From positions 79,890 through 143,889 of the forward strand of contig JBAZGN010000004.1 of assembly GCA_041652815.1 (NCBI GenBank): a DNA stretch of 64,000 bases. The letters run 5' to 3'. A model generated the notes under the pieces. The model was given only the letters and a program-made list of their open reading frames with translations. It made no database searches and was not told the origin of the DNA. The translations under genes were made by a program, and so were the position numbers. Source of the DNA: Candidatus Omnitrophota bacterium (GTDB taxonomy: Bacteria > Omnitrophota > Gorgyraeia > Duberdicusellales > 4484-171). Below are positions 38,010 through 61,848 of the stretch, in pieces. Position 1 is the stretch's first letter, and each line of letters begins with the position of its first letter.

Positions 38010-38180
38010 TTGTTCTTTTACAAATTTATTCCCCGGTAGCCAAATTCGCCTTTTTCCACAATTTTGATAAAGGCGAATTTGTCCCGACGAACTCGGGGTA
38101 AATTTATGAAAGAAATTTACCCCGTATCTAGGTGAGTCGGGATAATAACATTGTTCTTTTACAAATTTATTCCCCGGTAG
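38010..38180 (+). repeat. 31-nt direct repeat (ttgttcttttacaaatttattccccggtagc), second copy includes the tRNA 5' end
   Basis: Copies at 38010-38040 and 38148-38178; hairpins between them. Confidence 0.6.
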
Positions 38181-38493
38181 CTCAATTGGTAGAGCGGCTG
38201 GCTGTGCGAGGCCGAAGGCCGAGCATCTCGAGGCGATAGCCGAGAGATCTTGAACTCAAGGTGTTAGCAGCTCTTATGGGAAACCGTAAGATGAAAAAGC
38301 GAGTAAATTCAGGGAAACCCCGACGTTACGTTGGGGCAATCCTGAGCCAAGCCCTGTATGGGAAGGTGCAGAGACTAGACACTCGCTGCCTAAATCCGAT
38401 GTGGACATGGCAAAGGTATAGTCCGACTCTCACAGTAATGTGAGTCAGCGTGTAACCAGTAGGTCGTAGGTTCGAGCCCTACCCGGGGAGCCA
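38171..38493 (+). tRNA. tRNA (Thr-UGU if spliced after U33; alternatively Asn-GUU) interrupted by a 247-nt group I intron
   Basis: 5' exon tccccggtagctcaattggtagagcggctggct, 3' exon tgtaaccagtaggtcgtaggttcgagccctacccggggagcca; intron 38204..38450 carries gcagagactaga / ggtatagtccg P7 elements and aaattcagggaaacc, gagccaagcc. Confidence 0.8.
38204..38450 (+). ncRNA. ORF-less group I intron (IC3-like)
   Basis: Conserved P3/P4/P7 sequences as in the Azoarcus tRNA-Ile and cyanobacterial tRNA introns; omega G; P1 ggct/ggcc with U.G at the splice site. Confidence 0.8.
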
Positions 38494-40107
38494 ATTCATT
38501 CTCTTATCAAACTGAGAGATAGAGCTGCCAGAAGAGCCTTTTTTAAGTTCTTCTGGCGTCTTTATTTCTGGTAGGTCATAGAAGGTAATCCTAATCTTTG
38601 AGGGATTCTCGTGATAGATAATCTTTTTGATAAGAAGATGTAGCAGTTCGCCTTGTTTGGTAGACGGCAGCTTATCAAATGTTTCACTGAACAATCTTAG
38701 GGTCTGAACTATAATAGCAGGGTCAAGTATCTTCGATTTTTCTCTTTCAATCTCAAGATTAAGTTCTTGAAGTCTGTTTTCTAAAGCCTCTTTTACTTCT
38801 TCAAGCTTTTCCAATGCCTCTTCAACAAGAGAGAATTTCTTCCGTTCGATAGACGCTATTAAAGGCTGTGCCTTGTTATTATTTTTGGTCAGCTTACCAA
38901 TAATTTCGGCTTTTTCTTTTTGTAAACCGGGTAGCTTGTTCTTAGATGATTTCATAGCAGCACTGACAATAGAGTCTATGATATTTTTGTGATTCGCTAT
39001 AAATTTGATTCTATCTATAACCAGATGTTCTAATTCTCTGGCAGGAGTGCTTTTGATACAGCAGGCGTTTTTATCCGAATGACCTACTCGCGTACATTTG
39101 TAATATAGATACGGCCTTCCTTTCTTTAGAGAATAGTTGGGCGACATCTGTGATTTGCAATGGTCGCACCAAACCAAGCCTCTTAGTAAATGACCATATT
39201 TATTTTCACTTACTGAACCTTTTGTTTGAGCATTTGAGTTAATGATACGCTGCACTCTATCAAATAAATTCTTGCTGATAATGGTTTTCCAATTCGCTTG
39301 AAAATACTCTCGTTCTTCTTTATCCCCTTTTCTTGTTATAGCCACAGTTTTACCTATGTAAACAGGATTCTTGAGAATATTCAATATAATACCTTCGGTA
39401 AATTTATTTCCTCCCTTGACATCACCCGTCTTGGTTTTCCACGTTTTTGTGCGATAGCCAAGACCATTAAAATATGTAGCGATACGATTTGCAGATTGCA
39501 CTTCGGTATATTTTGCGAAAATACGCTTTGCTATTTTTGTTTCTTTTGGGTTTACTTTCAGTATGCCTTTTTCGCTTGGATGAAAATCGTACCCTAAGGG
39601 AGGATATCCGCCGTGGAATAGGCCTTTTTTTGCACGATACCTCATTCTGTCTCTGGTTCTTTCGCTGGCAAGACGTCTTTCGAACTCGGCGAAACTTAGG
39701 AGAACCTGTAAGATTAACTTACCAGTGGCGTCAGCAGTACTAAATGTTTGACTGGCACAACATATATTTATACCGTGTTCTTCCAATTTAGGCCATATTT
39801 GGAAGAATTGCACAAGGTCTCTACTAAAGCGGTCGATGCTTTTGACAATTATCATATCAAATTTGCCCTGCTCAGCATCCTGTAATAGTCGTTTTAAGGC
39901 AGGTCTATCCAAAGTTCCGCCAGAGTAATTTCTATCATCGTATCTTGTTGGAATGAGTTTCCAGTGAGGGCGGGTTTTAAAAAAACTTTCGCATATGTCT
40001 CTTTGGCTTTCTATTGTATCACTTGGCGAAATTTCTTCTGGATCTTGGTCAGATATCCTTGTATATACTACGCAGGTAAATTTCTTCTCAGCGTCTTTTG
40101 TGAACAT
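38479..40107 (-). CDS. Large serine recombinase (resolvase N-domain + recombinase + zinc ribbon + coiled coil)
   Basis: 542 aa; N-terminal YTRIS(D)QD catalytic Ser region, DRFSRD; C-terminal CxxC Zn ribbon and coiled coil; the 3' end overlaps the tRNA. Confidence 0.85.
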   Translation of the reverse strand: MFTKDAEKKFTCVVYTRISDQDPEEISPSDTIESQRDICESFFKTRPHWKLIPTRYDDRNYSGGTLDRPALKRLLQDAEQGKFDMIIVKSIDRFSRDLVQFFQIWPKLEEHGINICCASQTFSTADATGKLILQVLLSFAEFERRLASERTRDRMRYRAKKGLFHGGYPPLGYDFHPSEKGILKVNPKETKIAKRIFAKYTEVQSANRIATYFNGLGYRTKTWKTKTGDVKGGNKFTEGIILNILKNPVYIGKTVAITRKGDKEEREYFQANWKTIISKNLFDRVQRIINSNAQTKGSVSENKYGHLLRGLVWCDHCKSQMSPNYSLKKGRPYLYYKCTRVGHSDKNACCIKSTPARELEHLVIDRIKFIANHKNIIDSIVSAAMKSSKNKLPGLQKEKAEIIGKLTKNNNKAQPLIASIERKKFSLVEEALEKLEEVKEALENRLQELNLEIEREKSKILDPAIIVQTLRLFSETFDKLPSTKQGELLHLLIKKIIYHENPSKIRITFYDLPEIKTPEELKKGSSGSSISQFDKRMNWLPG

Positions 40108-40312
40108 ATCCTCTTGCCCCCTTAGCTTAATTGACTTTGATTATATAGCAAAGTATAATAAATGACAATATTGCACAAGGAATGGAGGAGACTATGAGAC
40201 AATGCAAGAATCGTTAATGATTACTCGCGAAGTGGCTGAGTTGAGTTCCTCAGGGCTCGACAGATGAATCAGCGAGTGTGCTATTAGAAAAGATTAAACT
40301 GGATAAGAAGAA

Positions 40313-42697
40313 ATGAATCTCAAACCACTGCTTACAAAAATAAAGTATTATGCAACTACCTCTTGGACTCGAACAATAACTTTAAGTTCACACCTTCTTG
40401 AGAACCTTAAGAAATGCATTGTTGCGACTCGTAAGCGTATGATTTCCATTCGCCATAAACTTAAATCGATGATGGCTACCGCGCGACAGCGCGCCGGATT
40501 ATCTTATATACGAGTAATGAATTGTTATTTCACCGTGGCAGGTAGCGCTAAGAAGTGCTTTACAATTATTAGTAATTGTGCGGCTTCTATCTTCGGCTTA
40601 TTTATACTCTTTATTCTTTATATGCCATTGGCGCAGAGCGTAGTTGGTAAGATTAGCAATCTCGACGCCATATTTCTTGCGATAGGGGGTTTGATAGGTA
40701 CTATATTGGCCTTAGTTATCTCACTCTCAATAATCCCTATTCAAGCAGCTGCCGAAAGTTTCTCGTCCTCGATTATTCGACTATACAGAGAGGACAAGGT
40801 AACTCGATATATATTTGCATTGTTGTCAATTTTCTGTCTTATTTCTTTCCTAATGGCGATAGGTGAAGCATTTGGGTACGCAAAGGCAGTATTATTACCT
40901 ATAGCAATCTTGTTTGTTGCAATGTCCATTGATCTATTAAGGTGGCATCATCGCCACATAACAAATCTATTAGGATCCAATGATGCTATTAGCCAATTAT
41001 CGAGCACAGTTAAGTCTTATCTGGACAAGACTTGCAAGAACATTGCCTTTTGGGCCAGATTTAAATGGATGTTTTTACCAAAAGCAGAACAGGATAAATT
41101 ACCCGTTAAGGCAATGGAGCAGTTTTTGTCTCAACAATCTTACAATATAGGGCCGTTAAAGATTTGGTTAAACGAATTTGCAGAAGTAGCACATAAGGCA
41201 ATTGTAAAGCAAGAAGTATTAAGAGCTCAACTCGCGATATTTGCAATGGCAGATATTGCTTGTTATTTCTTGGACAAACGAAAAGATAATCTCCGCATTT
41301 ATGCAGAAACAGAAGCATTGGGGTTAGTTTTAGGCAGTGACGTGAATGATATCTTGACCCCAATCTATGAGCATTATCGCAATATCTCTCGTAATGCAAT
41401 AGATAAGAAAGTGGAAACGGCTGCGATTTGTGTAGTCCAAGCATTGGGTAAAATTTCTATACATATAACCAACCTTAAGTCTCCGGCATTCCATAAGAAT
41501 ACGGCGCCCTTAACCTATCTTCCAGTAGGATATTTGAGTACTTGTGTCGAGATGGCTCAAATAGAAAAAATGAATGATGTTGCATTACAAGGAGCCAATA
41601 TTCTTTTGGATGTTGTAAAGGCTTCTCCTGTCAATGTTGATATAGCGGATGTTCACCTTACCATACTCAAAGAACTAACGAAGATAGCTGTGGAATTTCT
41701 TGCAAAAGGCAATGTCGCTCTTAGTAACCACGTTATAACAAATATAATGACTGTGGGGCATATTGCTGTTGCGGGGAAACACTTTAACGTTGATGCAATA
41801 ATGAAACAGCTTTTGGATTATATATACAGTCTATTGGTAGGCGCAGTAACTCAACAACGACTTGCTCCAGCGACTTTCCTTAATTTGCCATTGACACCAC
41901 CGTATGACTTAACCCAAGAGGTTTCTTTGGGATATCTTGTTGCAAGAGCTCAAGATTTAATTGAGAAACCAGATGAGGAAAAGCACTGGATAAATCCGTA
42001 CAGCGATTTTATTGAACTAAATGAATCGATTACGCGTCATTTGTATAAGATTGGCGAGCAGATTGATTTCGGCCCCAATTTCCTTCTTTGGCATATAATT
42101 CATACGATAATGCACATCTCAAAAATTTTCTTTAGTCTATTACAAAAGCCAATAACAGACAATAGCGACCATATCAAGGAACTGAAAGATTGCTTCAAAT
42201 GGTATCTTAGTTTCTTCTGGCTTGTGTTTTCAAATAAGAAAACCTTTATTGAGCTGACATTTGCTGAAGAAGCCACAGACGGTCTTGCGGTTATCGGGAT
42301 GCTTTTCTACAGCATCGACCATAAAGATATCACTCAGATGTGTATTGATAACATTGCCTCTATTGCAGAATCCTATCAGGAGATAGCCAAACCAAATTCA
42401 CTCCCACAAGCAGCTTTTTCTTTTAATATAGTCGATGTTATAATGCCTCTTTGGCAGGTTCGTATTTTAATGGAAGCCAAAACAGATGCAGATTTCCTTA
42501 ATAAAATTGATAATAAGTTGGCAGTCTTCCTTAAAGGAAGGGTGATGTCCTTAGTGGGTGTTGAGCCTTTAGAAACAAGAAAACGGCAGCTACAAAGACA
42601 GCTTCAGGAAGAATTGCATTTTAGTCAATGGGAGAAGGCAGTAGGAGTACTTCAGCAACTTCTCAAACCTAACGATGTCAAGAATGATACAGATTGA
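40313..42697 (+). CDS. Hypothetical protein: N-terminal 5-6 TM then large alpha-helical cytoplasmic domain (island operon gene 1)
   Basis: 794 aa; no recognisable catalytic motif. Confidence 0.5.
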   Translation: MNLKPLLTKIKYYATTSWTRTITLSSHLLENLKKCIVATRKRMISIRHKLKSMMATARQRAGLSYIRVMNCYFTVAGSAKKCFTIISNCAASIFGLFILFILYMPLAQSVVGKISNLDAIFLAIGGLIGTILALVISLSIIPIQAAAESFSSSIIRLYREDKVTRYIFALLSIFCLISFLMAIGEAFGYAKAVLLPIAILFVAMSIDLLRWHHRHITNLLGSNDAISQLSSTVKSYLDKTCKNIAFWARFKWMFLPKAEQDKLPVKAMEQFLSQQSYNIGPLKIWLNEFAEVAHKAIVKQEVLRAQLAIFAMADIACYFLDKRKDNLRIYAETEALGLVLGSDVNDILTPIYEHYRNISRNAIDKKVETAAICVVQALGKISIHITNLKSPAFHKNTAPLTYLPVGYLSTCVEMAQIEKMNDVALQGANILLDVVKASPVNVDIADVHLTILKELTKIAVEFLAKGNVALSNHVITNIMTVGHIAVAGKHFNVDAIMKQLLDYIYSLLVGAVTQQRLAPATFLNLPLTPPYDLTQEVSLGYLVARAQDLIEKPDEEKHWINPYSDFIELNESITRHLYKIGEQIDFGPNFLLWHIIHTIMHISKIFFSLLQKPITDNSDHIKELKDCFKWYLSFFWLVFSNKKTFIELTFAEEATDGLAVIGMLFYSIDHKDITQMCIDNIASIAESYQEIAKPNSLPQAAFSFNIVDVIMPLWQVRILMEAKTDADFLNKIDNKLAVFLKGRVMSLVGVEPLETRKRQLQRQLQEELHFSQWEKAVGVLQQLLKPNDVKNDTD

Positions 42698-43916
42698 AAT
42701 TAAAGACAATAAGAAAGTTGAGTTTGCCTTAGAGGAGTTGAAGAAAACAGTGCACGATAATGTATTTCACCACTCCTTATGTAGTAATATTCTGCTTTTT
42801 AACGTTGACATAAAGGGAATTAAAAAAATCAGGGAAAGACTAAATTTGCTTCTTGTTTCCATTTCGAGATTCCAGAAATACACTTCGCATTCAATAGAAG
42901 ATTTTAAGAGGGCGATTTTGGAAGAAATTGAAGCAAGGAAAGGAATAAAACCCGAAGTTTTCCGTTTTATTTTTTATCTTAACATCGAACGTAGTAGTAT
43001 TGAAAAGAAACGGTTTTTTGCATTAAGAGGAAGTAAGCTTTTTAGCAGGACCCATAGTTTTATTGATAGGAATTTTAATTTAGAAAAATTTATTGCGGAA
43101 TCAAGACTTTATGTCAATGTTAAAATCCCACCGAGCCCTGCGATGTTCCAACCTTTTGAATGTATAGTTTCAGGAAGGAATGATGGAGAGGCATTTTGGA
43201 AAGCGTTTGATATATTTGAATTATTTAGAGCTATACTCAATTTTAGTAATAATTTTGGTGTCATTTCTGTTCATTTCGGCAGTAGGCACGCTTACTTAAA
43301 TAGTTTTTTGCCTTCACCGTTTTGTTTAGTTTATAATTCGAAAAGAGAATACCTTCATTTTAGATATGATTTAATCGAATACAAATATAAGACCTTTAAT
43401 AGAACCGGGGCATTCTTTAAACCCGAAGTTTTTAGACTGCTATTAAAAGTTTTTCGAGATGAAATCAAGGAAGAAAGCATAGAGGTAATTATATTAGAAG
43501 CCCTATTTCATTATGTAAAAGCGCTGGATTCTTTGGAGTGGGAGACAGATTTTCTTAAATTATGGAGGATTTTGGAAGTAATTACATTCTATTCTGAAGA
43601 ATCGACTATTAAGCTAACAGGCAATCGAATTAAACTATTATTTCATCAAACTCCCAAATGGAATTATGTCATTGATTTTTTATGTTCACTAAGGAATGAA
43701 TTGGTCCACAAAGGTAACTTCCCGGAAGAAGGTTCAGACCAAGTAAGTGCCTTGAAGTTCATAGTTGAAAATGCAATATCGATATTGATATCTATGCGAA
43801 AAGACTTTAAAGACAAAGCTGCTTTGAGGCTCTTTTATGAAAATGATTCTTCTGGCACAGGTGATTTAAGAAAGAAAATCTCTGTGATTAAAAAAATATT
43901 AGCTTACAGGAAATGA
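42675..43916 (+). CDS. HEPN-domain (Rx4H) Abi-like protein (island operon gene 2)
   Basis: 413 aa; C-terminal LRNELVHKGNF HEPN-type R-X4-H motif; 23-nt overlap with gene 1. Confidence 0.5.
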   Translation: MSRMIQIEIKDNKKVEFALEELKKTVHDNVFHHSLCSNILLFNVDIKGIKKIRERLNLLLVSISRFQKYTSHSIEDFKRAILEEIEARKGIKPEVFRFIFYLNIERSSIEKKRFFALRGSKLFSRTHSFIDRNFNLEKFIAESRLYVNVKIPPSPAMFQPFECIVSGRNDGEAFWKAFDIFELFRAILNFSNNFGVISVHFGSRHAYLNSFLPSPFCLVYNSKREYLHFRYDLIEYKYKTFNRTGAFFKPEVFRLLLKVFRDEIKEESIEVIILEALFHYVKALDSLEWETDFLKLWRILEVITFYSEESTIKLTGNRIKLLFHQTPKWNYVIDFLCSLRNELVHKGNFPEEGSDQVSALKFIVENAISILISMRKDFKDKAALRLFYENDSSGTGDLRKKISVIKKILAYRK

Positions 43917-43946
43917 GCAATATACTTTAACGACGAATCGGCGCGC

Positions 43947-45269
43947 GTGTTGTTGGAAAAAATAAAGTCGAGTAAGAGGACGAAAAAAATGGAAGAAAAT
44001 AATTTAGTGCAACGTATAGAGGTACTTTATGGTCAGTTATCTTCGCTTGGAGAAACGATAAAATCATCTATCAACCATAAAGATAAAAGCGATTCTTCTT
44101 ATCCTCAGGCCGCCAAAAGATACAATGTTATACTAAAACAGCTACAAGAATTAACTAAAGACATCGACTATATTCGAGAAAGTATATCACAGTTCACCGA
44201 ATATGAAGAAAAGAGCTTTATGTATCACGGTAATTACGGATACGCAATCAACCTATTAACAGATATCAATATGTTAGTTTCTTCTATTTCTAAATTTAAG
44301 AGCAGTATTGCTTTGGAGGCGAAAAAGATACAAGGCGAAAAGCCCTTGATATTTATTAGCTACGATGGAGACGAATTAGCACTCGCGGATTTCGTAAAAG
44401 TTATTATTACCAGATGGGCAGCAGACAAGATTGAAACATTCGTTGCTCGAAGAGATATTGGTTCCGGAGACAATCCGCTCAAGACTATGATGGAACTTAA
44501 GTTAAAAAATGCTGATGCTATAATTACAATTTGTTCAATTAAGTCTAAAGAAAGTGGTTGGGTGTGGTGGGAATCGGCTGTTTTATGGGCTAAAGACCGG
44601 AAAATTTTTCCTTTATGTAGCAATATATCTCCGGGTGGTTTTGGTGCCCCACTTAATTTGGTATCTCAAGGAAAATACTTTTTCGACGAAACTGAGTTTA
44701 TGGAAACTATTCAAGTGGTTTGTTCTGAATTTGACATCCAGACAGTAATAAAAGAGTTTTCTCAGGAAGAGAAAAAAGAGTATGAAAAGCTAAAGAGTGA
44801 ATATTCAATACCGAAGACAACCTCAAAAATAGATGTTGTTTTTGAAACGCTGGAAATGACTCAAAACTTGCACAAGTATTCCTTGATATTTGATGTATGG
44901 AATCTTGGAGATAAGGCATTTGAGAACGTAGTGGCTGAACTGTGGTTTCCTACTAAATATCTTGAAAAGACTGAATGGAATTATTCTCATTTACAAGCGG
45001 TTGAGTCAGAAGAAAAGAGGGGATATACTTGTTTGACCTTTGATTTTTCTGCTTTGCCAGACACCGGGAAGAGACAATTTGGGAAAGATTTGTTGCCAAA
45101 GAAGCGCTTGAGAATATTTGGTAAAGGTGGGATTTCAATACTCCAATATCATATGACCCACGATTTATGGTGGGACGTAACGAAGTATGAAGTTGTATGG
45201 AAGGTATACATCAATGGTGGAGCTCCCCACGAAGGTAAGATTTCTTTGCAGTCACTTCAACAATTTTGA
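43947..45269 (+). CDS. Coiled-coil + TIR-like domain protein (island operon gene 3)
   Basis: 440 aa; residues ~125-230 read IFISYDGDE...RRDIGSGDN...SGWVWWE, resembling TIR box1/box2 and the SxWCxxE helix with a conserved Glu. Confidence 0.5.
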   Translation: MLLEKIKSSKRTKKMEENNLVQRIEVLYGQLSSLGETIKSSINHKDKSDSSYPQAAKRYNVILKQLQELTKDIDYIRESISQFTEYEEKSFMYHGNYGYAINLLTDINMLVSSISKFKSSIALEAKKIQGEKPLIFISYDGDELALADFVKVIITRWAADKIETFVARRDIGSGDNPLKTMMELKLKNADAIITICSIKSKESGWVWWESAVLWAKDRKIFPLCSNISPGGFGAPLNLVSQGKYFFDETEFMETIQVVCSEFDIQTVIKEFSQEEKKEYEKLKSEYSIPKTTSKIDVVFETLEMTQNLHKYSLIFDVWNLGDKAFENVVAELWFPTKYLEKTEWNYSHLQAVESEEKRGYTCLTFDFSALPDTGKRQFGKDLLPKKRLRIFGKGGISILQYHMTHDLWWDVTKYEVVWKVYINGGAPHEGKISLQSLQQF

Positions 45270-46468
45270 AGGAAGGAACTATGAAGATTGATTGGACAAA
45301 TATTTGGTCTTGGATAGTTGTAACGATAGCGTCTATAGCTGGGATAGTTACTTTTTTATTGAATATTGGCAAAATCTTTTCTGGAATCGGAAAGGCTTGG
45401 CATTGGCTTTATCGTAGAATTACTCGATATCAACCGCGAGTGCCGAAAGAGACATTACGTTTAATACCGAAACCACGTCATAGCTGGTGGAGTATGGGGA
45501 CATTCGATGGCGAACCTTCTATGCAGCTTGTCTGTGATTGGTACGTTACAAACATAACAAATCAAGCTGTTAAGGTGTGTGGCGCCAGAGTACGGAAACC
45601 GAAAGTTGATGGTCATATGATGGTTCGACATCAAAAAGAAAATATATACGGGGGATACTATATCCCTCCTCAGTATACCACTGACGGAAGGGCAGATTTT
45701 TGGATTCATCCGCCTATAAAGAAAATTGGAGAGCCATTAGTCCTTGATCTCGAATTTATTGACCAATACGGAAATATTCATAGGGTTAAAAAGGTTAAAT
45801 TTAACGCTCCTCAACCAAAGAAGAAGGATGTTGAACCACCGATGGAATCAATAGCAACCATAAAAGACCCTATCGAAAAAGAGATTTTAAGCGTTCTTCA
45901 AAGCGAGGCGCATCGCTATAAAGACTGCGGACGACGAGTTGGAGGACTTGGTAGTGTTGTTCTAAACTATCAGGGGCGCAAAGTTACGGGTGTGGGAACT
46001 GATTGGAGAACGGCTGATTCCCCAGAAATGCAATCGATTGTTCCTGACCCACAGAGCGCAAAACTTGAATCCGACAATGGGACAATCCTTGTACGCTATT
46101 TTCAATCACTTACAGGAAAAGATATACAACGATTTTGTGAAGTTTTGCTTCAACGAATATCCAAAGGCAATGCTTATGCGCCAATCGGCTATTTTTTTCT
46201 GTATGTAGGATATCGAACAAATATATTGAAAGGTGTATTAAAATCTGCTAAAGATAATTTGAAGGGTGATTCGGGGTACGGATTCAGTGATTTACTTCGA
46301 CTTTTAGATGGTATACTTAAATATGAATACCAAAACTTTAATTCAGAAACCTTAGATATTATAGAACAATTTATTGATGGGTTGGACGATGAGTGTCTCT
46401 TCCGTATCCCAGAACGTGTTCGAGCAATAAGGGCATATATTCTATCTAATAAAATTATCTCATCATAA
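45266..46468 (+). CDS. Membrane-anchored hypothetical protein (island operon gene 4)
   Basis: 400 aa; one N-terminal TM; ATGA overlap with gene 3. Confidence 0.45.
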   Translation: MKEGTMKIDWTNIWSWIVVTIASIAGIVTFLLNIGKIFSGIGKAWHWLYRRITRYQPRVPKETLRLIPKPRHSWWSMGTFDGEPSMQLVCDWYVTNITNQAVKVCGARVRKPKVDGHMMVRHQKENIYGGYYIPPQYTTDGRADFWIHPPIKKIGEPLVLDLEFIDQYGNIHRVKKVKFNAPQPKKKDVEPPMESIATIKDPIEKEILSVLQSEAHRYKDCGRRVGGLGSVVLNYQGRKVTGVGTDWRTADSPEMQSIVPDPQSAKLESDNGTILVRYFQSLTGKDIQRFCEVLLQRISKGNAYAPIGYFFLYVGYRTNILKGVLKSAKDNLKGDSGYGFSDLLRLLDGILKYEYQNFNSETLDIIEQFIDGLDDECLFRIPERVRAIRAYILSNKIISS

Positions 46469-46765
46469 GTCTAATAATTGCTAACAAATTATATAATGAA
46501 TTATGATATATTAAGTTTGTCAGTAAAGTATCTTCCGTAAGACAGGATTAAAAAAGGAGGCGGAGTATAATCTAACAATAAAGGTTTCTATATAGAACAT
46601 AGATTTTCCTGATTTACAAACCAACTTGCAAGAGGAAAAGACTATGTCTCGAGCGTACAAACGTTTCGGGGCAAGCGGTCTTTCACTTTTACTTGCAAGT
46701 TGGGTGAGGGACTTAAAAATGCTTGCCCCCCTTTTATTTTTGGGCAGGCAAGGAGGTGTCTGTAT

Positions 46766-47156
46766 GAAAGAAGCAATTTATCTGATAGTTATCTTAACGT
46801 TAGTAGGCGGCTGCGCAAGCTTATCTGAAAAAGGAGATATTTATCTTCATAATTTAGAAAGACATAAACACTCTAAGGAAATAGTAGTGAGCAGTTCTTA
46901 TGACGAGGCATTTAATGCAGTAATAGAAACTTTTCGCGATTTGGGCATCAATGTGCTCAAGAAGGATTATGAAAATAAGAAAATTTTAGGCTCGCTTTAT
47001 CCTGAGCATTATATGAATCATTACGGAGTGTTTTTTAGCGATATGGGAGATAACAAGATAAAAATCACCCTGAAGGCAACGGGTTTTCTTATTAACGAAG
47101 ATACGATTTTGGAGAAAATAAACGAAACATTATCACAACCTAAACTTAAAAAATAA
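46766..47156 (+). CDS. Lipoprotein
   Basis: The internal Met of ORF 46626..47156 gives MKEAIYLIVILTLVGGCAS lipobox. Confidence 0.45.
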
Positions 47157-47194
47157 GAGATTATTATTGTTTGGAGAACAAATAAAGAAGGAGG

Positions 47195-47512
47195 ATGGAT
47201 ATGAAAAATTTAATTCTGGTTTTTGTAGCTATTCTAATCTCTTCTGGTTGCGCAACGTGCTTTGAAGATTTACATATCAGGCAACAGGAAGCCTCTCTAT
47301 ATACTGGAATGTCATATTATGAAGTAGTAAAGATAGTAGGTAGAGAACCGAACCCTGCTCGAGATACGATTCTTCAGGGAACAGACTCAGAAGGTCAATG
47401 GATGACTTGGGTGGTCGGACAAAGCAAACTATTAAGGAGCAACTCAAATTTTACTCAGACTTATCATTTAAAATTCAGAAACAGGAAGCTTACTGAATGG
47501 TGGAGTTCTTAG
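47195..47512 (+). CDS. Lipoprotein
   Basis: LISSGCATC lipobox; 105 aa. Confidence 0.45.
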   Translation: MDMKNLILVFVAILISSGCATCFEDLHIRQQEASLYTGMSYYEVVKIVGREPNPARDTILQGTDSEGQWMTWVVGQSKLLRSNSNFTQTYHLKFRNRKLTEWWSS

Positions 47513-47576
47513 TAAATAATTATAAGCTTCTTGACACCAGCATTATATTAGTATATACTATTTAGTAAATACTAAT

Positions 47577-48191
47577 ATGAAATGGTCAATTTCTTCAAAT
47601 CAGCCAAAGCTTTGTAGCGCTACAAAAATACTTAAAGAGCTTGGTGGAAAACTTAGCAAGAAGATGTTTGAGTATCTCCGGGATACCTTTCGTCTAATTC
47701 CACCTCCCATCAAAAGAAGTGAAGGTAAAGGTATCATAGCCCTATATCCGGAATCCGTTGTGTTTTATTTGCGCCGAATTTTGATTAAGCAGAGCAAAGG
47801 ATTTACCTTCAAGCAGATTAAAGAAAAGCTAAAAATTGATACAGAGCGAATTTTCCAAGAAACCGATGCCTTGAAGCGTCAGTTCGAATTAGAGAAAGAA
47901 TTTAAGAGGCGCTTAGTTCGTGGTTTGAAGACGGGTGACCATCCCGCTTTTGATGATGGAAACGTTATTGGTAGTGCTAATAAGCAGAGTGAAGACATAG
48001 AGTCAATGATAGAGATTGTTAAGAAGGAGTTTAAGAGACAAGCAAGCAAATTAGACGATGTATCAATCAAGGCTATAAGGACCTTGAGAAAGAAATTGGA
48101 TGAACTGGAAAAGCTTGAAGGCGAAAAAAAATTTTCGCAATATGTAATCGAAGAAATTACAAAGGTGGCAAATGAAAAGACAAGGGATTAA
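47577..48191 (+). CDS. MerR/excisionase-like HTH protein with C-terminal coiled coil
   Basis: 204 aa; the N-terminal ~80 aa resemble MerR-type winged HTH; directly upstream of a recombinase. Confidence 0.35.
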   Translation: MKWSISSNQPKLCSATKILKELGGKLSKKMFEYLRDTFRLIPPPIKRSEGKGIIALYPESVVFYLRRILIKQSKGFTFKQIKEKLKIDTERIFQETDALKRQFELEKEFKRRLVRGLKTGDHPAFDDGNVIGSANKQSEDIESMIEIVKKEFKRQASKLDDVSIKAIRTLRKKLDELEKLEGEKKFSQYVIEEITKVANEKTRD

Positions 48192-48741
48192 ATATTTTAC
48201 AAGTGAATTAAAAGGAATCTTGATCAAGACATTAAAATTGCGCCGAGATGCAGTTAGATCATATGCGCTATACGATTTAATGCTTAATACTGGTTTGCGT
48301 TTGGCTGAGGTTATGGGACTTGATGTTGGAGACGTAGAAAACAGAACAGTTCTCGAGGTGATTGGCAAGGGTTCTAAATTTCGAGAAATACCTCTCAATA
48401 AGGCAATCAGAGAGCATATACAAGATTTTTTGAGTTGGAAGAAAAAGAAGGGTGAAGGTTTGTCTGCGGATTCGCCATTATTCGTTAGTAGACTTGGAAA
48501 ACGTCTTAGTAAGCGAGCCGTGCAGCGAGACCTCGCTAAATGGGTTAAGCAAGCTGGAATCGAGGGGCACTTTACGCCGCACTCTCTTAGGCATACGGTT
48601 GGAACAGAATTGTTAAATAAGACAGGGAATTTACGGGTAGTGCAGGAATTTCTCGGCCACGCAGATATATCAACAACTCAGATATATACTCACGTTAGCA
48701 GGGAGCAGATACAGCAGGCTGCTGACCTTTTGGCGATATAA
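48172..48741 (+). CDS. Tyrosine recombinase catalytic domain (truncated, no N-terminal core-binding domain)
   Basis: 189 aa; R(LRLAE)...HSLRHT...GH...Y(IYTHV) catalytic tetrad region. Confidence 0.6.
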   Translation: MKRQGIKYFTSELKGILIKTLKLRRDAVRSYALYDLMLNTGLRLAEVMGLDVGDVENRTVLEVIGKGSKFREIPLNKAIREHIQDFLSWKKKKGEGLSADSPLFVSRLGKRLSKRAVQRDLAKWVKQAGIEGHFTPHSLRHTVGTELLNKTGNLRVVQEFLGHADISTTQIYTHVSREQIQQAADLLAI

Positions 48742-48828
48742 CGACGCATTATATAGAAAAAGCGTCGTTCAATAGCGTTTTTGTGCATAAAGATGGTCAA
48801 AAAATAGGGTATAAAGCGGCGTTCGGAG

Positions 48829-49665
48829 GTGGACAAAATGGACAAAATTGGACCAAGATGGTATAGGGATGAGTCAGGTATTCACGTAGATGTCGAACTT
48901 TTGCCTGAAATAAATATCCTTGTTGAGTTTAACCTGACCGAGAACGAATACAATCAACAAATAGGTATGCTTCTTAATTGGCGTATTACTCGCATAGAAC
49001 AAGAAGCCAAACTGCATTTTGCTGAAAAGAAACCTTTCCGTGTGATAGCTGATATTGTTGGTGTCTCTAAGTCACAGGTTTGCAATGATATTGCTGATTA
49101 TCGTAGAACAATTTTAAAGAGCATCGGGCAAGATATACAAGCTAACGGGTCGGCGCTTGGTCTGTTGGTAGAATTAACTGTGCAGGTTGCGAGCAGAATA
49201 CAGCTTTATTGGGATAAGTATAACGAACTTCAGCGTTCATCGCAAGTGCTGGGAATTCTTTTAGATAGGACATATAACAGGCTTCAAAAGAATCCTAATG
49301 CGAGGGTAACGAATGCCAGCACCTTAAAGGATATAGCTCGAGAGAGACGCGCAATAGCAGAATCACAAAAGAATACCCTTGCGCAGCTTAGAGCAGAAAC
49401 CCAGCAATTGCTAAATATTTATGAGGCTTTTGGTTTGACCAGCATAGAGGCTCTCAGTTTGGTGAACACTGGCGAAGGATATCTACAACAAAAAATAGAT
49501 GAGGTTAAGAGTCTTATGCCTGTGTTAATAAAAATTATCAAGTTAGAAGTTACAGATGAGACACAAAAACGAAACATTTTCGGGAGGCTTGCAAATTTTA
49601 TTAGGGAAAATGCCCTTTCAAAACATTTAAACAATAGTGAGGTGGATTATGAATTTAGAGTATAG
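48829..49665 (+). CDS. Hypothetical protein with putative HTH
   Basis: 278 aa; RVIADIVGVSKSQVCNDI HTH-like segment. Confidence 0.35.
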   Translation: MDKMDKIGPRWYRDESGIHVDVELLPEINILVEFNLTENEYNQQIGMLLNWRITRIEQEAKLHFAEKKPFRVIADIVGVSKSQVCNDIADYRRTILKSIGQDIQANGSALGLLVELTVQVASRIQLYWDKYNELQRSSQVLGILLDRTYNRLQKNPNARVTNASTLKDIARERRAIAESQKNTLAQLRAETQQLLNIYEAFGLTSIEALSLVNTGEGYLQQKIDEVKSLMPVLIKIIKLEVTDETQKRNIFGRLANFIRENALSKHLNNSEVDYEFRV

Positions 49666-49939
49666 CCCAAAAGAAAGATACAACAAGATAGTCGAGATAT
49701 TAGCAGAGGGCGTTATTAGTCTTATCAGATACAGGTTGCGCTTATCTGCAATGTTACACAAGGGTATGAATGAATGCTTGAGTAGAATTATGGATATAAT
49801 GTCTAAGGATAAGTCAGTTAAGTCTTGTGCGATTAGTGGTTATTTTGTCGAGGCTACTATCGAGAAAAATAAACAAAAACGTTATATTGAGCCATTTGGA
49901 AAGGTTTATTCTTTTTCTCAAATGATTACACGCGATTAA
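49637..49939 (+). CDS. Hypothetical protein
   Basis: 100 aa; overlaps the previous ORF. Confidence 0.3.
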   Translation: MRWIMNLEYSPKERYNKIVEILAEGVISLIRYRLRLSAMLHKGMNECLSRIMDIMSKDKSVKSCAISGYFVEATIEKNKQKRYIEPFGKVYSFSQMITRD

Positions 49940-49953
49940 CGCGAGTATCGACA

Positions 49954-50745
49954 ATGTCTTATATTTGTAAAACAGGAAAAGGCGAAGAAGCAGACCCAAG
50001 TTTAGCCATTTTTCCAATCCTCAAAGAGGTAGATGGAAAAAGATTGGTTGTGGGCTCTGCTTTTTTTATTACTAATACGGGAATTTTTGTTACAGCAAAA
50101 CACGTTATAAAGGATGTATTCGACGAAAGAGGCAAGCAAAAATATCCAATATTTGGTTTACAAATTTTACCCGATGATAAATATATAATAAGACCAGTCC
50201 TTAGCTGTTATTCCAATACAAAATCTGATGTGGTGGTCGGTGCATTAGAGCAACAAAGGCATAAAATTACCGGTGAGCCACGATCCAATAAGCTTCTTGT
50301 TCTAACTTTAATTGAGCCAAAACAAGGGGCAAGGATAGTAACTTATGCTTATCCGGGGTCTAAAACCGAAATAGAAGGTAACGTGCAAACCCTTACATTA
50401 AAACCTGAATATTATGATGGAGTATTGGAAGATTATCTTCCGGAAGGTAGAGACAAATCAATGCTTCCTTTTCCGTGTTACAGGGGAAGTATAAGAATTA
50501 TTGGTGGGGCCAGTGGAGGTCCGGTGATGGATGAGCAAGGTCGAGTATTTGGGATAAATTGTACAGGATTCGAAGGAACGAACATCAGTTTTTTTGCCAG
50601 AATAAATGAAATTTTAGCATTGAGAGTTGACGATTTGGTGATAAATGGCGTTCACAGAGATAGTATTGATATTATTGAATTAGCTGAAAGAAAAGTAATT
50701 ATATTTGAACCGTCTTTTAAACGAAGTCAGATAATAAAAAAATAG
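49954..50745 (+). CDS. Trypsin-like (S1/chymotrypsin fold) serine peptidase
   Basis: TAKHV (His), GGASGGPV (Ser) motifs. Confidence 0.65.
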   Translation: MSYICKTGKGEEADPSLAIFPILKEVDGKRLVVGSAFFITNTGIFVTAKHVIKDVFDERGKQKYPIFGLQILPDDKYIIRPVLSCYSNTKSDVVVGALEQQRHKITGEPRSNKLLVLTLIEPKQGARIVTYAYPGSKTEIEGNVQTLTLKPEYYDGVLEDYLPEGRDKSMLPFPCYRGSIRIIGGASGGPVMDEQGRVFGINCTGFEGTNISFFARINEILALRVDDLVINGVHRDSIDIIELAERKVIIFEPSFKRSQIIKK

Positions 50746-50762
50746 TTCCCTCATTTATTTAG

Positions 50763-51026
50763 TTAAGACACGGGAAACATCCTTCTGAGATAATTAACTG
50801 GAATCCTTTCCTTCATTGATACTGGTAGGTCTTCAGGTATATAGTAAATCGGTTTTAAAATCAAACGTTTTTGTCCGTGGGCCGTTCTCAGGATATCAAA
50901 CTCAAATTCATCCGTAAATGCAGTTTGAAGAGAGAGCGTCTCGGGGAGCCATAAAAAAATTGCCCCACCCATTTTCGGGTGGGGTTTAATTTTTTTATGC
51001 TTTTTGTATAAGGCTCGAACCGTCAA
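50763..51026 (-). CDS. Hypothetical protein
   Basis: 87 aa; the only minus-strand ORF near the island right end. Confidence 0.3.
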   Translation of the reverse strand: MTVRALYKKHKKIKPHPKMGGAIFLWLPETLSLQTAFTDEFEFDILRTAHGQKRLILKPIYYIPEDLPVSMKERIPVNYLRRMFPVS

Positions 51027-51221
51027 GGGAGTTTGAGGGAAAGTATTTCCCTCAAATTATTTAAGCTTCTTCGTAAGGAAGGGGAGTGACAGGTGTGAAT
51101 CCGAAGGATGAGCCCGCCAGAGAGGGGAAACGTAGTTTCCTCTTTGTGGAGAGGAATGAGCGAAGTGAATGACGAAGGTTCGCCGAAGGGAAAGCCCTAC
51201 CCGGGGAGTTTTGACAAAAAT

Positions 51222-51248
51222 AGCCCAGCTTTATGCTGGGCTTTTTTG
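51222..51248 (+). terminator. Rho-independent terminator inside repeat copy A
   Basis: agcccagc ttta tgctgggct + tttttg; the same terminator occurs at 51972-51998 and 60273-60300. Confidence 0.6.
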
Positions 51249-51374
51249 TCAAATTGCCTTGGTAAAAGGGCGAGAACACCTGCCGAGTCTGTGTAAATTT
51301 ACTTCGTAAATTTACACAGTATCCAGCGAGGCGGGACGAGAGCCCATTCCAACTTCAAAAGACGGGGGAGTTTT

Positions 51375-51412
51375 TGACTTTTAAACCCTCTGTGATAATA
51401 TATTGCAGAGGG
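51375..51412 (+). promoter_or_regulatory. Promoter/operator module copy 1 (TTGACT-N16-TAATAT; palindrome AACCCTCTG..CAGAGGGTT around the -10)
   Basis: tttttgacttttaaaccctctgtgataatatattgcagagggtt. Confidence 0.6.
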
Positions 51413-51464
51413 TTTTTTGGTTTATTTTTTTAAAGTTAATTGGTATAAAAAAGGAGGGTTGGAT

Positions 51465-51908
51465 ATGAGAGGAAGGTGTATAATTATTTTATCCTTAGCG
51501 ATAAACCTATTTTTTTGTTTTGTTTCGTTTAGTGCGACTCTTCCTGATGAGAATGCTGCAAAAGATTTAACTAATAAAATTATGACAAAAATTGCCAACG
51601 GAGACATCGATAATGCCTTTAAGCTTATGAAGCCTTACGTCCCTATTAGTGCAACAGAAATTGATTCAGCTGCAATTCAGACGAAAGCACAATTAGAACA
51701 GTATGGGCAAAGGTATGGTGAACCGATTGGTTTTGAATTTATTGATTCAACAAAAATTGGTGATTCCGTGTTCAGATTTCGTTATCTTGCAAAAATGAAA
51801 AATAACGCTTTGCCCTGGGTTTTTATTTTTTATAAAACCACAGACGGATGGACATTGAATAACTTTAGTTGGAAGGATAGCGTAGTAAACTTATTTGAAA
51901 AGAATTAA
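51465..51908 (+). CDS. Secreted hypothetical protein
   Basis: ATG after AAGGAGGG; signal peptide MRGRCIIILSLAINLFFCFVSFSA. Confidence 0.5.
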   Translation: MRGRCIIILSLAINLFFCFVSFSATLPDENAAKDLTNKIMTKIANGDIDNAFKLMKPYVPISATEIDSAAIQTKAQLEQYGQRYGEPIGFEFIDSTKIGDSVFRFRYLAKMKNNALPWVFIFYKTTDGWTLNNFSWKDSVVNLFEKN

Positions 51909-51944
51909 CATTAGTTTCTTAACATCAACCAGTTGCTAAATTCG

Positions 51945-52200
51945 TCCAACCAGGGGAGTTTTGACAAAAATAGCCCAGCTTTATGCTGGGCTTTTTTGTC
52001 AAATTGCCTTGGTAAAAGGGCGAGAACACCTGCCGAGTCTGTGTAAATTTACGAAGTAAATTTACACAGTATCAGCGAGGCAGGTGGAGAGCCCTACCCA
52101 ACTCAACCTTAATATATGTATACAGAGAGTTGTCCCTTTAGGGGTTGGGGAGTTTTTGACTTTCTAACCCTCTGTGATAATATATTGCAGAGGGGTTTGT
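51945..52200. repeat. Long composite repeat, copy B
   Basis: Near-identical to copy C 60247-60500, including the perfect 31-nt palindrome ctgtgtaaatttacgaagtaaatttacacag (52039-52069). Confidence 0.7.
52154..52195 (+). promoter_or_regulatory. Promoter/operator module copy 2
   Basis: tttttgactttctaaccctctgtgataatatattgcagagggg. Confidence 0.6.
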
Positions 52201-52250
52201 TTACAATATAAAATACACATTATATATAGTAGAAAAACATAGGAGGTTCG

Positions 52251-53459
52251 ATGCTGAAAAAACATTTGTTATCCATAGTGGCTTTGCTGGCGATAAGCTT
52301 GAGTATGCCGCTTTCTAGGCTATGCGCTGAAGAATCAAATGGTGTTGTAGCTGCCAATAATCAATTTGCTTTTGAGCTTTATGCCAAATACAAATCAAAA
52401 GACGGAAATATTTTCTTCTCTCCTTACAGTATTTCTTCGGCATTAGCAATGACATATGAAGGCGCAAGGGGAAAGACCGCAGAGGAAATGCTGGTAGTGT
52501 TTCATTTTCCTAAGGATGGCGCTCTCCGTAGAGAAGGCTTCTTAGCCATAAATAATCAAATAAATAAGCAAGATAAAAAATATGAGCTACGTGTAGCAAA
52601 TGCTTTATGGGCAGAGAAGGATTACACATTCCTTGAGAATTATTTTAAGTTAATAAAAGATTACTATGGCGGAGGAGTGACAAATTTGGATTTTAAGTAT
52701 GACGCCGAAAATTCACGCCTTGCAATAAATACTTGGGTTGAAGAGCAAACAAATAATAAAATAAGGAATTTAATTCCTCCGGGCATAATTAATAATATGA
52801 CACGGTTAGTCCTTACTAATGCAATTTATTTTAAAGGAAAATGGCTTAAGCAGTTTGATGAAAAAAATACCATTGATGATGATTTTAGAATAAGCCCGGA
52901 GAAGTCTATTAAAGTTAAAATGATGAAATTAACCAGTAATAAACCAGATTTTAGTTATGCGGAAACAGACAAACTCCAGGTATTGGAATTACCTTATGAT
53001 GGCAAAGAGTTATCAATGTTGATACTTCTTCCCAAGGCGGGCGATTTAAAATCCGTAGAAGAATCACTAAATTCTCAAATGTTGACAGAATTAAAAAACA
53101 ACCTTTATGCAAACTACGTTGACATATTTTTACCAAAATTTAAGGTTGAAAGTAAATATTTTATGGCTGATGATCTTAAAGAAATGGGCATGCCTATGGC
53201 ATTTTCGGATAAGGATGCTGATTTTTCAGGTATGGATGGCATGAGAATTTTATTTATTGGACAAGTGATACACCAGGCTTTTGTTGAGGTGAACGAAGAA
53301 GGCACAGAGGCAGCTGCTGCAACAGCTGTAGTTATGGAATGCACGGGTATCTTTGAACGAAAAGTATTCAAAGCTGACCACCCATTTATATTTATAATTC
53401 AAGAAAAAAAATCCGGAAATATTTTATTTTTGGGAAGGGTTAATAATCCAGAAAGTTAA
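52251..53459 (+). CDS. Serpin (serine protease inhibitor), secreted
   Basis: 402 aa; signal peptide; NAIYFKGKW, reactive-centre-loop hinge EEGTEAAAATAV, C-terminal FKADHPFIFIIQE...ILFLGRVNNP serpin signature. Confidence 0.85.
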   Translation: MLKKHLLSIVALLAISLSMPLSRLCAEESNGVVAANNQFAFELYAKYKSKDGNIFFSPYSISSALAMTYEGARGKTAEEMLVVFHFPKDGALRREGFLAINNQINKQDKKYELRVANALWAEKDYTFLENYFKLIKDYYGGGVTNLDFKYDAENSRLAINTWVEEQTNNKIRNLIPPGIINNMTRLVLTNAIYFKGKWLKQFDEKNTIDDDFRISPEKSIKVKMMKLTSNKPDFSYAETDKLQVLELPYDGKELSMLILLPKAGDLKSVEESLNSQMLTELKNNLYANYVDIFLPKFKVESKYFMADDLKEMGMPMAFSDKDADFSGMDGMRILFIGQVIHQAFVEVNEEGTEAAAATAVVMECTGIFERKVFKADHPFIFIIQEKKSGNILFLGRVNNPES

Positions 53460-60183: not shown

Positions 60184-60246
60184 TCAGAGTCATTTCTTTG
60201 GTCAGTTTTTCCGCTTCCCTAAACATCACCCAGTTGCTAAATTCGT

Positions 60247-60500
60247 CCAGCCCGGGGAGTTTTGACAAAAATAGCCCAGCTTTATGCTGGGCTATTTTTG
60301 TCAAATTGCCTTGGTGAAAGGGCGAGAACACCTGCCGAGTCTGTGTAAATTTACGAAGTAAATTTACACAGTATCCAGCGAGGCAGGTGGAGAGCCCTAC
60401 CCAACTCAACCTTAATATATGTATACAGAGAGTTGTCCCTTTAGGGGTTGGGGAGTTTTTGACTTTCTAACCCTCTGTGATAATATATTGCAGAGGGTTT
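60247..60500. repeat. Long composite repeat, copy C
   Basis: cccggggagttttgacaaaaatagcccagc...; perfect palindrome 60341-60371; promoter module at the 3' end. Confidence 0.7.
60458..60500 (+). promoter_or_regulatory. Promoter/operator module copy 8
   Basis: tttttgactttctaaccctctgtgataatatattgcagagggtt. Confidence 0.6.
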
Positions 60501-61750: not shown

Positions 61751-61834
61751 AGTTGCGAAATTCGTCTAATGAGCCAGCATCTTTTGAAGCTGAAGGCGCA
61801 CAAAAGTGCGTTGGCGAATTATCCCCGAAGGGGA
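61751..61834 (+). repeat. ~85-nt repeated leader element (copy 2)
   Basis: Identical to 56775-56858. Confidence 0.7.
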
Positions 61835-61848
61835 CAACCCGGGGAGTT

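Follow-up and report, generated by a model that had tools for sequence, protein, structure and literature searches.

Large serine recombinases (LSRs) such as the integrases of phiC31, Bxb1, TP901-1 and Listeria A118/LI combine Resolvase, Recombinase and zinc ribbon domains with a coiled coil, and the phiC31-type enzymes act on a short attP of about 48 bp, an imperfect inverted repeat with a central crossover, leaving a short repeat behind. An LSR with the same domains, of the same size class and with the same kind of attP and leftover repeat is encoded on an island in a 64,000-nt stretch of Candidatus Omnitrophota DNA (contig JBAZGN010000004.1, positions 79,890 to 143,889; below called the window). 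The island differs from the phiC31-type systems in its target, which is a tRNA 3' end and not a protein gene, and in its attP, which lies inside the reading frame of its own LSR. Its sibling elements have a small excisionase-like gene beside the LSR, a candidate directionality factor as in those systems. The identity to any characterised system is low.

The SCCmec cassettes, moved by the LSRs CcrAB and CcrC, insert in the extreme 3' end of the conserved housekeeping gene rlmH (orfX) without inactivating it. They resemble the window island in their short direct repeats and in the variable cargo between conserved backbone genes, but their target is a protein gene (rlmH, orfX) instead of a tRNA gene, and their recombinase gene is internal and not crossed by an att site.

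According to the Islander paper, no serine recombinase had been known to use tRNA genes as its target (PMC4383910), and Ghinet et al. 2011 described such integration as rare, with integrative and conjugative elements of actinomycetes (AICEs) from Mycobacterium in tRNA-Leu and phage phiRSM1 in tRNA-Ser as precedents (PMC3218068). An original prediction for the locus, made from the sequence without database searches, had called a serine integrase at a tRNA notable, which is fair given this rarity although the precedents exist (PMC3218068). Like the AICEs and phiRSM1, the window island has a serine-family recombinase integrating at a tRNA gene; it differs from them in phylum (Omnitrophota), in the tRNA (Asn, with a group I intron) and in element type. 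The enzyme of phiRSM is small and resolvase-like, unlike the window LSR.

An attP inside the integrase gene, combined with a tRNA target, is known from IntP/IntX of the Myxococcus phage Mx8 and the 'suicidal' integrases of the SSV1 type (PMC4383910, PMC7253208). The integrases of Mx8 and SSV run on over attP (PMC4383910): integration alters the C-terminus of the integrase in Mx8 and splits the gene between the island ends in SSV, and excision restores it. The SSV-type integrases splitting their own gene are tyrosine recombinases (PMC7253208). The window LSR also has a frame that runs across attP, but a serine and not a tyrosine fold, and thus works like this class without being a member of it. 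Furthermore, the SSV split removes essential parts and inactivates the enzyme, whereas the window LSR loses only a 59-residue tail predicted to be disordered. Literature searches, incomplete in coverage, turned up no reported LSR whose own gene contains attP.

Borders of the island in the tRNA-Asn gene

Positions 38494–50951 of the window (12,458 bp) are interpreted with high confidence as an integrative element in the last bases of a tRNA-Asn(GUU) gene of a Candidatus Omnitrophota host, inserted by its own LSR. The two ends comprise the following features:

38171–38205, plus strand: exon 1 of tRNA-Asn(GUU) (ARAGORN on the spliced sequence; exon borders from the intronless relative L002)
38206–38452, plus strand: group I intron of 247 nt in the anticodon loop, between U35 and U36 (Rfam RF00028 and exon borders)
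38453–38493, plus strand: exon 2 of tRNA-Asn with encoded CCA, the chromosomal side of attL (ARAGORN, relatives)
38484–38493, plus strand: attL core, left copy of the 10-bp direct repeat CGGGGAGCCA, comprising the 3' strand of the acceptor stem, the discriminator and CCA (repeat count; junction fixed by the empty site of L088)
50942–50951, plus strand: attR core, right copy of CGGGGAGCCA, then native tRNA downstream sequence as in L088, L037, L030 and L046
50952–50998, plus strand: native terminator of tRNA-Asn, displaced by 12.5 kb and outside the island (TAAAAAAATTGCCCCACCCATTTTCGGGTGGGG..., directly 3' of the tRNA in L088 and L037)

The 10-mer CGGGGAGCCA has exactly two copies in the window against 0.07 expected. 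An intact tRNA gene stands at the left end, and the displaced tRNA fragment at the right end (50942–50951) consists of this 10-mer only, the signature of islands of the Islander type.

Loci of relatives were gathered via RecR, encoded just upstream of the tRNA, and numbered 80, the closer ones being nearly all metagenome-assembled genomes of Candidatus Omnitrophota. Locus L088 was found by scanning one degenerate attB/attP/attL/attR pattern against metagenome contigs. It is close to the window (RecR 92%, DnaX 81% and flanking DNA 78–87% identical; tRNA intron of the same kind), and its empty site reads ...CCCTACCCGGGGAGCCA directly joined to TAAAAAAATTGCCCCACCC..., 87% identical to window positions 50942–51189. 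Also in L037, L030 and L046 the tRNA-Asn is directly followed by TAAAAA..., a GC-rich hairpin and GGCTCGAACC...GAGGGAAAG, which is the window sequence after 50951, and the site is unoccupied in L003 (RecR 93%) and L005 (85%). Uninterrupted target sites are thus present in six relatives (L088, L003, L005, L030, L037 and L046). Because the tRNA of the relatives runs directly into the homologue of 50952 onward, the insertion comprises 38494–50951, flanked by CGGGGAGCCA. The attL junction was seen again in independent assemblies, L001 with the left 9.4 kb of the island and L002 with 42 nt of it.

The original prediction had the island inserted into the tRNA 3' end by a large serine recombinase, between 38476 and 51208, with the 15-mer GCCCTACCCGGGGAG as the att repeat. 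The insertion and the enzyme stand, while the right border and the att repeat have to be replaced. The 15-mer does recur exactly and far beyond chance (two copies, at 38476 and 51194, against 0.02 expected), and islands in tRNA genes are classically recognised by a tRNA gene together with a displaced piece of it (PMC4383910). The empty site that the prediction had suggested seeking in related genomes exists in L088, but the tRNA is there joined directly to the homologue of 50952 onward and not to the 51.2 kb point. Since the homologue of 50952–51189 directly follows the L088 tRNA, the 257 bp up to 51208 are native sequence. The region of the 15-mer is likewise present in the island-free L088, L030, L003 and L005, approximately 200–300 nt downstream of the tRNA, and the LSR frame continues over the junction at 50951 and not over one at 51208. 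The wider borders are consequently hardly credible and are counted as already refuted by L088; the border is 50951.

A comparison of composition inside and outside the island, also suggested with the original prediction, did not set the island apart by GC content or GC skew within the window. Its tetranucleotide composition did: the island stands out with an L1 distance of 0.198, where the other 12.5-kb segments reach 0.113 at most. The GC content shared with the flanks, together with a degraded excisionase-like gene, would also suit an immobile ancestral gene cluster that was deleted in the relatives. Such a history would need a base-precise deletion at a 10-bp repeat in several lineages, and it is extremely improbable also in view of a sibling element that exists as a circle and of the same backbone carrying other cargo in other genomes.

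The intron-containing tRNA that was predicted for the left end is indeed a tRNA-Asn(GUU), interrupted by a group I intron of 247 nt. Rfam matched RF00028 at 38242–38445 with 82.3 bits. ARAGORN called no tRNA near 38476 in the window as it stands, and a 76-nt tRNA-Asn(gtt) with encoded CCA when 38171–38205 and 38453–38493 were spliced. The exon borders 38205 and 38453 were set by L002, in which the two flanking pieces join without an intron, and exon 2 is identical in L002, L005, L008, L018 and L088 by sequence comparison. The island supplies a fresh copy of the final tRNA bases, and therefore the tRNA-Asn is intact though its terminator is displaced: in the occupied site the full sequence with CCA is kept and the own terminator lost. 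As read from the sequence, transcription of tRNA-Asn would now run antisense into the LSR gene.

The tRNA-Asn of L002, whose RecR is 96% identical, is intronless with exons identical to those of the window (L002 3875–3952 against window 38169–38493), and the 42 nt after it on the LSR side are identical to the window. Very close lineages, apparently carrying the same island, thus differ in whether the group I intron is there. A second RF00028 match (63.7 bits) lies at 19783–19996 of the window, where ARAGORN calls no tRNA. The first 11 nt of the tRNA with 20 nt upstream are duplicated at 38010–38046 and 38151–38187, 141 nt apart and 95% identical, with hairpin-rich sequence between the copies. 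This duplication is old and unrelated to the island, since the island-free L088 shows the same arrangement.

Recombination sites and the split recombinase gene

The LSR gene and its surroundings include the following features:

38479–40107, minus strand: LSR in its integrated form, 542 aa, ending ...NWLPG-stop, the last codons antisense to the tRNA 3' end (Pfam)
50763–50951, minus strand: displaced 3' end of the LSR gene, 62 codons, WLPETLSLQTAFTDEFEFDILRTAHGQKRL...PVS-stop (in frame with the LSR across attP; homology to the C-termini of P0010 and P0007)
40108–40201, both strands: divergent promoter region between the LSR gene and the cargo, with TTGTCA-17-TATAAT on the minus and TTGACT-17-TATAAT on the plus strand (sequence)
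40202–40267, plus strand: remnant, 21 codons, of a 59-aa HTH_17/MerR excisionase-like gene (tblastn with the sibling protein)

The 542-aa serine recombinase gene had been correctly predicted to end in the tRNA 3' end on the minus strand, as the translation across the junction and the Pfam domains confirm. Resolvase (PF00239, 3.6e-34, residues 13–162), Recombinase (PF07508, 6.8e-17) and Zn_ribbon_recom (PF13408, 6.3e-09) are all intact and in the order of serine integrases. R17 and S19 lie in the motif YTRIS, and the columns C14, Y17, R19 and S21 of the clade alignment are invariant, as in a serine-recombinase catalytic domain. The stop codon TAG is the complement of 38479–38481, inside tRNA exon 2, and GGGGAGCCA together with the T-stem, read in antisense, gives the WLPG codons and the stop.

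Rebuilt from the ends, the attP junction of the window reads GAGAGAGCGTCTCGGGGAGCCAATTCATTCTCTTATCAAACTG and the attB junction GAGCCCTACCCGGGGAGCCATAAAAAAATTGCCCCACCC. Four attP sites were compared, those reconstructed for the window and the P0002 island and the natural ones of L082 and L085. In all four the outer motifs GTTTGA (left) and TCAAAC (right) lie 18 nt from the centre, which falls between GGCT and CCCC (GGGG and AGCC on the tRNA strand), giving an attP of 48 bp, GTTTGA-N36-TCAAAC. attB has the T-loop antisense, TCGAAC, at 13 nt from this centre, 5 bp nearer than in attP, and the core common to attP and attB is 10 bp; the sites are short and imperfectly dyad-symmetric as those of serine integrases. 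In the structural model of the LI integrase by Rutherford et al. 2013, the outer motif reportedly also lies 5 bp nearer the centre in attB than in attP. Strand exchange would take place at the centre of the 48-bp attP, between GGGG and AGCC on the tRNA strand (approximately tRNA positions 71/72), with GA on that strand as the putative central dinucleotide, and the tRNA T-loop GTTCGA would act as the outer recognition motif of one attB half-site. The unoccupied site of a relative, the occupied site of the window and the circular sibling indicate indirectly that such an LSR joins attP to attB, and the window LSR very probably inserted the island at tRNA-Asn.

Another candidate for moving the island is its 189-aa tyrosine recombinase (48172–48741), the serine recombinase then being cargo or a resolvase. 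Tyrosine integrases are the usual ones at tRNA genes (PMC4383910), and the 189-aa protein has a complete catalytic domain and is conserved in two siblings. However, it lacks a DNA-binding domain at its N-terminus, and 2.2 kb separate it from the closer end of the island, while the gene at the tRNA junction is the serine recombinase and not the adjacent tyrosine integrase of Islander-type islands. Also the circular sibling L082 is without a copy and yet carries an LSR whose gene contains attP. The direct repeat measures only 10 bp, attP has the symmetry of serine-integrase sites, and the LSR frame is conserved over the junction in many elements. A tyrosine recombinase as the mover is accordingly very improbable, and integration by the LSR is retained.

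The reconstructed attP gives a single frame of 600 aa ending WLPETLSLQTAFTDEFEFDILRTAHGQKRL...PVS when the joined ends are translated. On this translation the LSR frame contains attP: the product of the free element would be 600 aa long, and integration leaves 542 aa ending in WLPG and a stop and carries the final 59 codons to the opposite end of the island, from where excision would rejoin the gene. Approximately 90% of the LSR, including all recognisable domains, is kept in one piece after integration.

The displaced tail aligns to the C-termini of the LSRs P0010 (residues 539–580, E 4e-11) and P0007 (539–573, E 2e-9). A database search with the 600-aa form found a close clade at 48–81% identity, with two kinds of C-termini. 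Most members end in WLP and an antisense-tRNA peptide (REDSNLGHSGY..., GEGSNLGHPGY...), often continuing into antisense intron, while P0010 (WLPDTTTHQTTFRDEFRFGIRR...) and P0007 (WLPVTLPNQTTFTDVFQYQLL...) carry the contiguous tail. The LSRs with tRNA-antisense ends are, to judge from these peptides, integrated copies; group I introns are present at the 3' ends of the integrated homologues in L090 and L094. At the right end of a second integrated island (L099/L100/L101) the tail frame is intact and the position of its stop unchanged. The L099 and window tails share 43 of 62 residues (69%) and differ by 18 synonymous and 19 non-synonymous codons, and the tail is conserved well beyond the 48-bp attP site, which points to purifying selection on a piece that would be usable only after excision. 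A full HMMER search with P0010 returned the close clade as one 50% cluster, with an integrated-form representative, and no further tail-bearing relatives.

Pfam found nothing in the 62-aa tail. The AlphaFold model of the sibling P0010 (15-row alignment) has long helices at 354–456 after the zinc ribbon, at the place of the coiled coil, and no structure after approximately residue 507, residues 510–584 being unstructured with a pLDDT (predicted local distance difference test score) of about 30. All folded domains thus stay with the 542-aa form, the tail being at most a flexible extension.

The block TTGACTTTGATTATATAGCAAAGTATAAT of the divergent promoter region is kept in the sibling elements, and the 59-aa HTH_17 gene is intact in every sibling, including the circle. 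With the sibling protein as the query, tblastn found this gene in L082–84 and L090–96 and not in the window, where approximately the first 14 codons align. The HTH_17 protein may be an excision cofactor, and if so, the window copy may excise poorly because the gene is lost. The LSR, both att cores and the tail frame of the window copy are intact and its divergent promoters conserved.

Several points weigh against an LSR-driven element as described above. All the genomes involved are metagenome assemblies, and neither an excised form nor an empty site of this exact island was found in one metagenome scan, which missed even the junctions of the window itself; for the same reason the absence of the island's attP from that scan carries no weight. 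The gene of the candidate excision cofactor is degraded in the window island. The crossover position and the assignment of the half-sites were derived from symmetry alone. The displaced tail is not a recognisable folded domain, as AlphaFold gives no confident structure there. Finally, the conservation of the first tail residues, with the FDKR and LQT motifs, is confounded with that of the DNA site: the attP motifs lie there, and protein conservation near the junction (FDKR, WLP, LQT) is therefore partly conservation of the site.

Sibling elements, cargo and neighbouring sequence

The genes between the two parts of the LSR gene are the following:

40313–42697, plus strand: 794-aa membrane protein, weakly DUF2254-like (Pfam 1.5e-06, under the curated cut-off; L092 homologue 61% identical)
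42675–43916, plus strand: 413-aa protein with no family match (Pfam and further family searches)
43947–45269, plus strand: 440-aa coiled-coil and TIR_2 protein (Pfam TIR_2 3.4e-08; 94% identical in L094)
45266–46468, plus strand: 400-aa protein, widely shared, function not assigned (60% identical in the circular L082, 95% in L094)
46626–47512, plus strand: two small open reading frames of 176 and 105 aa (82–94% identical in L094)
47577–48741, plus strand: 204-aa protein with a weak MerR_1 match, overlapping a 189-aa tyrosine-recombinase catalytic domain (Pfam)
48829–50745, plus strand: right-end module of a 278-aa protein, a 100-aa protein and a 263-aa trypsin-like serine protease (Trypsin_2 1.1e-10)

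The sibling LSR P0010 occurs on three contigs (L082, L083 and L084) of three assemblies, with terminal overlaps of 141, 123 and 30 nt. The contigs are circular permutations of one another and each resolves to 11,282 bp. The LSR of this circle is 48% identical to that of the window and has the contiguous tail. The gene order is as in the window (LSR, 59-aa HTH_17, cargo, then the homologues of the 400-aa, 204-aa, 278-aa and 100-aa proteins and the protease), with type I restriction-modification as the cargo instead of the set of DUF2254-like, 413-aa and TIR proteins. The right-end module is in the same order and 48%, 54% and 60% identical in the circle L082, and 58%, 53% and 75% identical in L099.

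The integrated siblings L090, L092 and L094 have mixed modules of the window and the circle. The slot next to the LSR would thus hold exchangeable defence cargo, DUF2254-like/413-aa/TIR in the window and type I restriction-modification in siblings; this is supported by the mixing of modules and by the TIR and 400-aa genes of L094, which are 94–95% identical to those of the window while its LSR is 81% identical. Because of the TIR_2 domain, and of the type I restriction-modification in the same slot of siblings, a defence role of the window cargo is plausible from sequence. PADLOC gave no match for the 794-aa, 413-aa, TIR and 400-aa proteins and only weak domain-level matches for the protease, and no informative name for any cargo or backbone gene came from PADLOC, NCBIfam or PHROGs. 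On the 11–12.5-kb element no phage structural or conjugation genes were recognised.

The TIR_2, DUF2254-like, Phage_integrase (189 aa) and Trypsin_2 matches among the predicted cargo are real, while the MerR-like call is weak (E 0.007–0.08). The tyrosine recombinase, thought to be truncated, is not a chance truncation: its whole catalytic domain is present (PF00589, 2.5e-42, profile positions 11–170 of 172), and the protein has the same length in L090 and L092 with 73–77% identity. Its 204-aa partner is 37–43% identical in L082, L085, L090 and L092. The overlapping pair, a 138–204-aa protein followed by the 189-aa catalytic domain, is found in the window (47577–48741), L090 (1757–2739) and L092 (1345–2474) and not in L082. 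From this arrangement the pair looks like a two-piece recombinase and not a broken gene.

LSRs approximately 30% identical to that of the window, in L004 and L014, adjoin tRNA-Asn at the same position in the same frame (...NWLPGEGSNLGHPG and ...DWLPG, each followed by a stop), and hence the choice of the tRNA-Asn target is old and common to a wider group. Several more distant LSRs in the database also end in WLP or in tRNA-antisense peptides. The LSR P0003 (L092 10001–12031, 676 aa) is 62% identical and has past WLP another, longer tail with a ParB-type helix-turn-helix, and GCGAAC lies 18 nt from its centre, a spacing like that of attP. The L092 contig is 57 kb long with ArdC-N, methylase and metal-transport genes, and the same recombinase module may there be on a larger plasmid or conjugative element. 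In L085 (906–4036), the gene next to P0007, where other elements have the protease gene, encodes a SecY homologue of 469 aa; the two genes lie tail to tail and overlap by 4 nt. The protease homologue P0136 led to an unrelated chromosomal gene, and no junction was seen on the P0124 contigs.

Outside the island, the second copy of the 15-mer lies in a conserved feature:

50996–51208, plus strand: structured element with a tRNA-Asn-like 3' end (AGGTTCG, a 10-nt insert and AGCCCTACCCGGGGAG), holding the second 15-mer (homologues in relatives)

Homologues are in the same place in the island-free L088 (2291–2527, minus strand), L030 (8622–8843), L005 (11400–11668) and L003 (10775–10955), and one in L099 (2303–2496) adjoins the attR of another island. 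The element lies just past the terminator of tRNA-Asn and is approximately 200–260 nt long across the relatives, about 210 nt in the window. Its end is tRNA sequence from the T-loop to the acceptor with an insert, 10 nt in the window and 55 nt in L088, and in L088 and L099 it is followed by a terminator of its own, in L088 also by an encoded CCA. The RNA fold has a z-score of -5.9 against shuffled sequence, with three hairpins, seven pairs with compensatory changes and an invariant CGAACC/GGTTCG stem closing the structure. With permissive thresholds, Rfam on 50900–52250 gave only chance-level matches for the element. A protein-coding, a transfer-messenger RNA-like and a group I intron remnant explanation of its conserved end were considered, and none fitted on inspection or in Rfam.

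As part of an element that island-free relatives also carry, the 15-mer at 51194 is not an att site. The original prediction had itself named the possibility of a repeat other than an att site, and this is in spirit what was found, as the 15-mer ends the conserved element and adjoins a repeated intergenic module. The element predates the LSR island. It may be a hitherto unknown small RNA, a tRNA fragment displaced long ago, or both.

The copy at 51194 might also be a tRNA-Asn 3' fragment displaced in a far older integration event, such as one by a tyrosine integrase with its crossover in the T-loop; the LSR island would then be the newest in a tandem array behind tRNA-Asn and the approximately 210-nt element the remains of an older island. 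The match is longer than the 15-mer (AGGTTCG, the insert and AGCCCTACCCGGGGAG), the fragments of L088 and L099 have their own terminators, that of L088 with encoded CCA and that of L099 CCA-less like its own native tRNA end, and the fragment of L003 shares a T-stem variant with the tRNA of that genome. Similarly, more degenerate tRNA-Asn 3' halves lie at about 51930–51958 and 60231–60259, and in L018 and L029 the following repeat module sits directly after the real tRNA. Conservation in at least five species with compensatory hairpin changes and a strongly non-random fold, however, fits a functional RNA better, the insert inside the identity block is unlike a simple attR, and no integrase remnant is present. 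The older integration is thus possible but rather doubtful.

That repeat sequence starts right after 51208 had been seen correctly. Directly after the second 15-mer comes a 128-nt repeat with a further copy, 96% identical, at 51946, and promoter-like GGGGAGTTTTTGAC motifs occur at four places after it. The repeated intergenic module is approximately 250 nt long and present at 51193–51416, 51943–52198 and 60244–60490, and partially at 61831–61880. It precedes genes for small secreted, TPR or serpin-type proteins. Four parts make it up: the 3' half of a tRNA-Asn in degenerate form, a terminator hairpin with TTTTGACAAAAA/TTTTTGTCAAA on its flanks, the palindrome GTGTAAATTTAC, and promoter-like GGGGAGTTTTTGACTTT...TGTGATAATAT together with a hairpin, CCCTCTG/CAGAGGG. 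One copy precedes a bacterial serpin gene just downstream of the island (52251–53459; Pfam Serpin, E 3e-122).

Implications for the recombinase family

The LSR island in tRNA-Asn is real, precisely bounded and of a rare kind with precedent, and the split integrase gene is its unusual feature. A more speculative possibility, put forward tentatively and with some doubt, is that the integration-dependent remodelling of the LSR is a functional switch: the 600-aa form, made only from the free circle, would integrate, and the 542-aa form without the tail would differ in direction, activity or stability and thereby fix the island in place or regulate it. Such an arrangement may then apply generally to a broad 'WLP' group of uncharacterised LSRs in uncultured phyla, specialised on tRNA 3' ends and with the conserved C-terminal motif being the antisense of ...GGGAGCCA.

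The island and its siblings are well-documented cases that enlarge the small set of serine recombinases known from tRNA genes, in a phylum without genetics, and show a compact 11–12.5-kb backbone exchanging what would be defence cargo among Omnitrophota genomes. They provide base-precise attP, attB, attL and attR for an LSR family aimed at a universally conserved tRNA 3' end; LSRs serve as tools for genome insertion, and this target is present in every cell of the host lineage. The arrangement is a serine-recombinase counterpart of that of Mx8 and SSV, in which a role of the C-terminal tail in directionality is directly testable.

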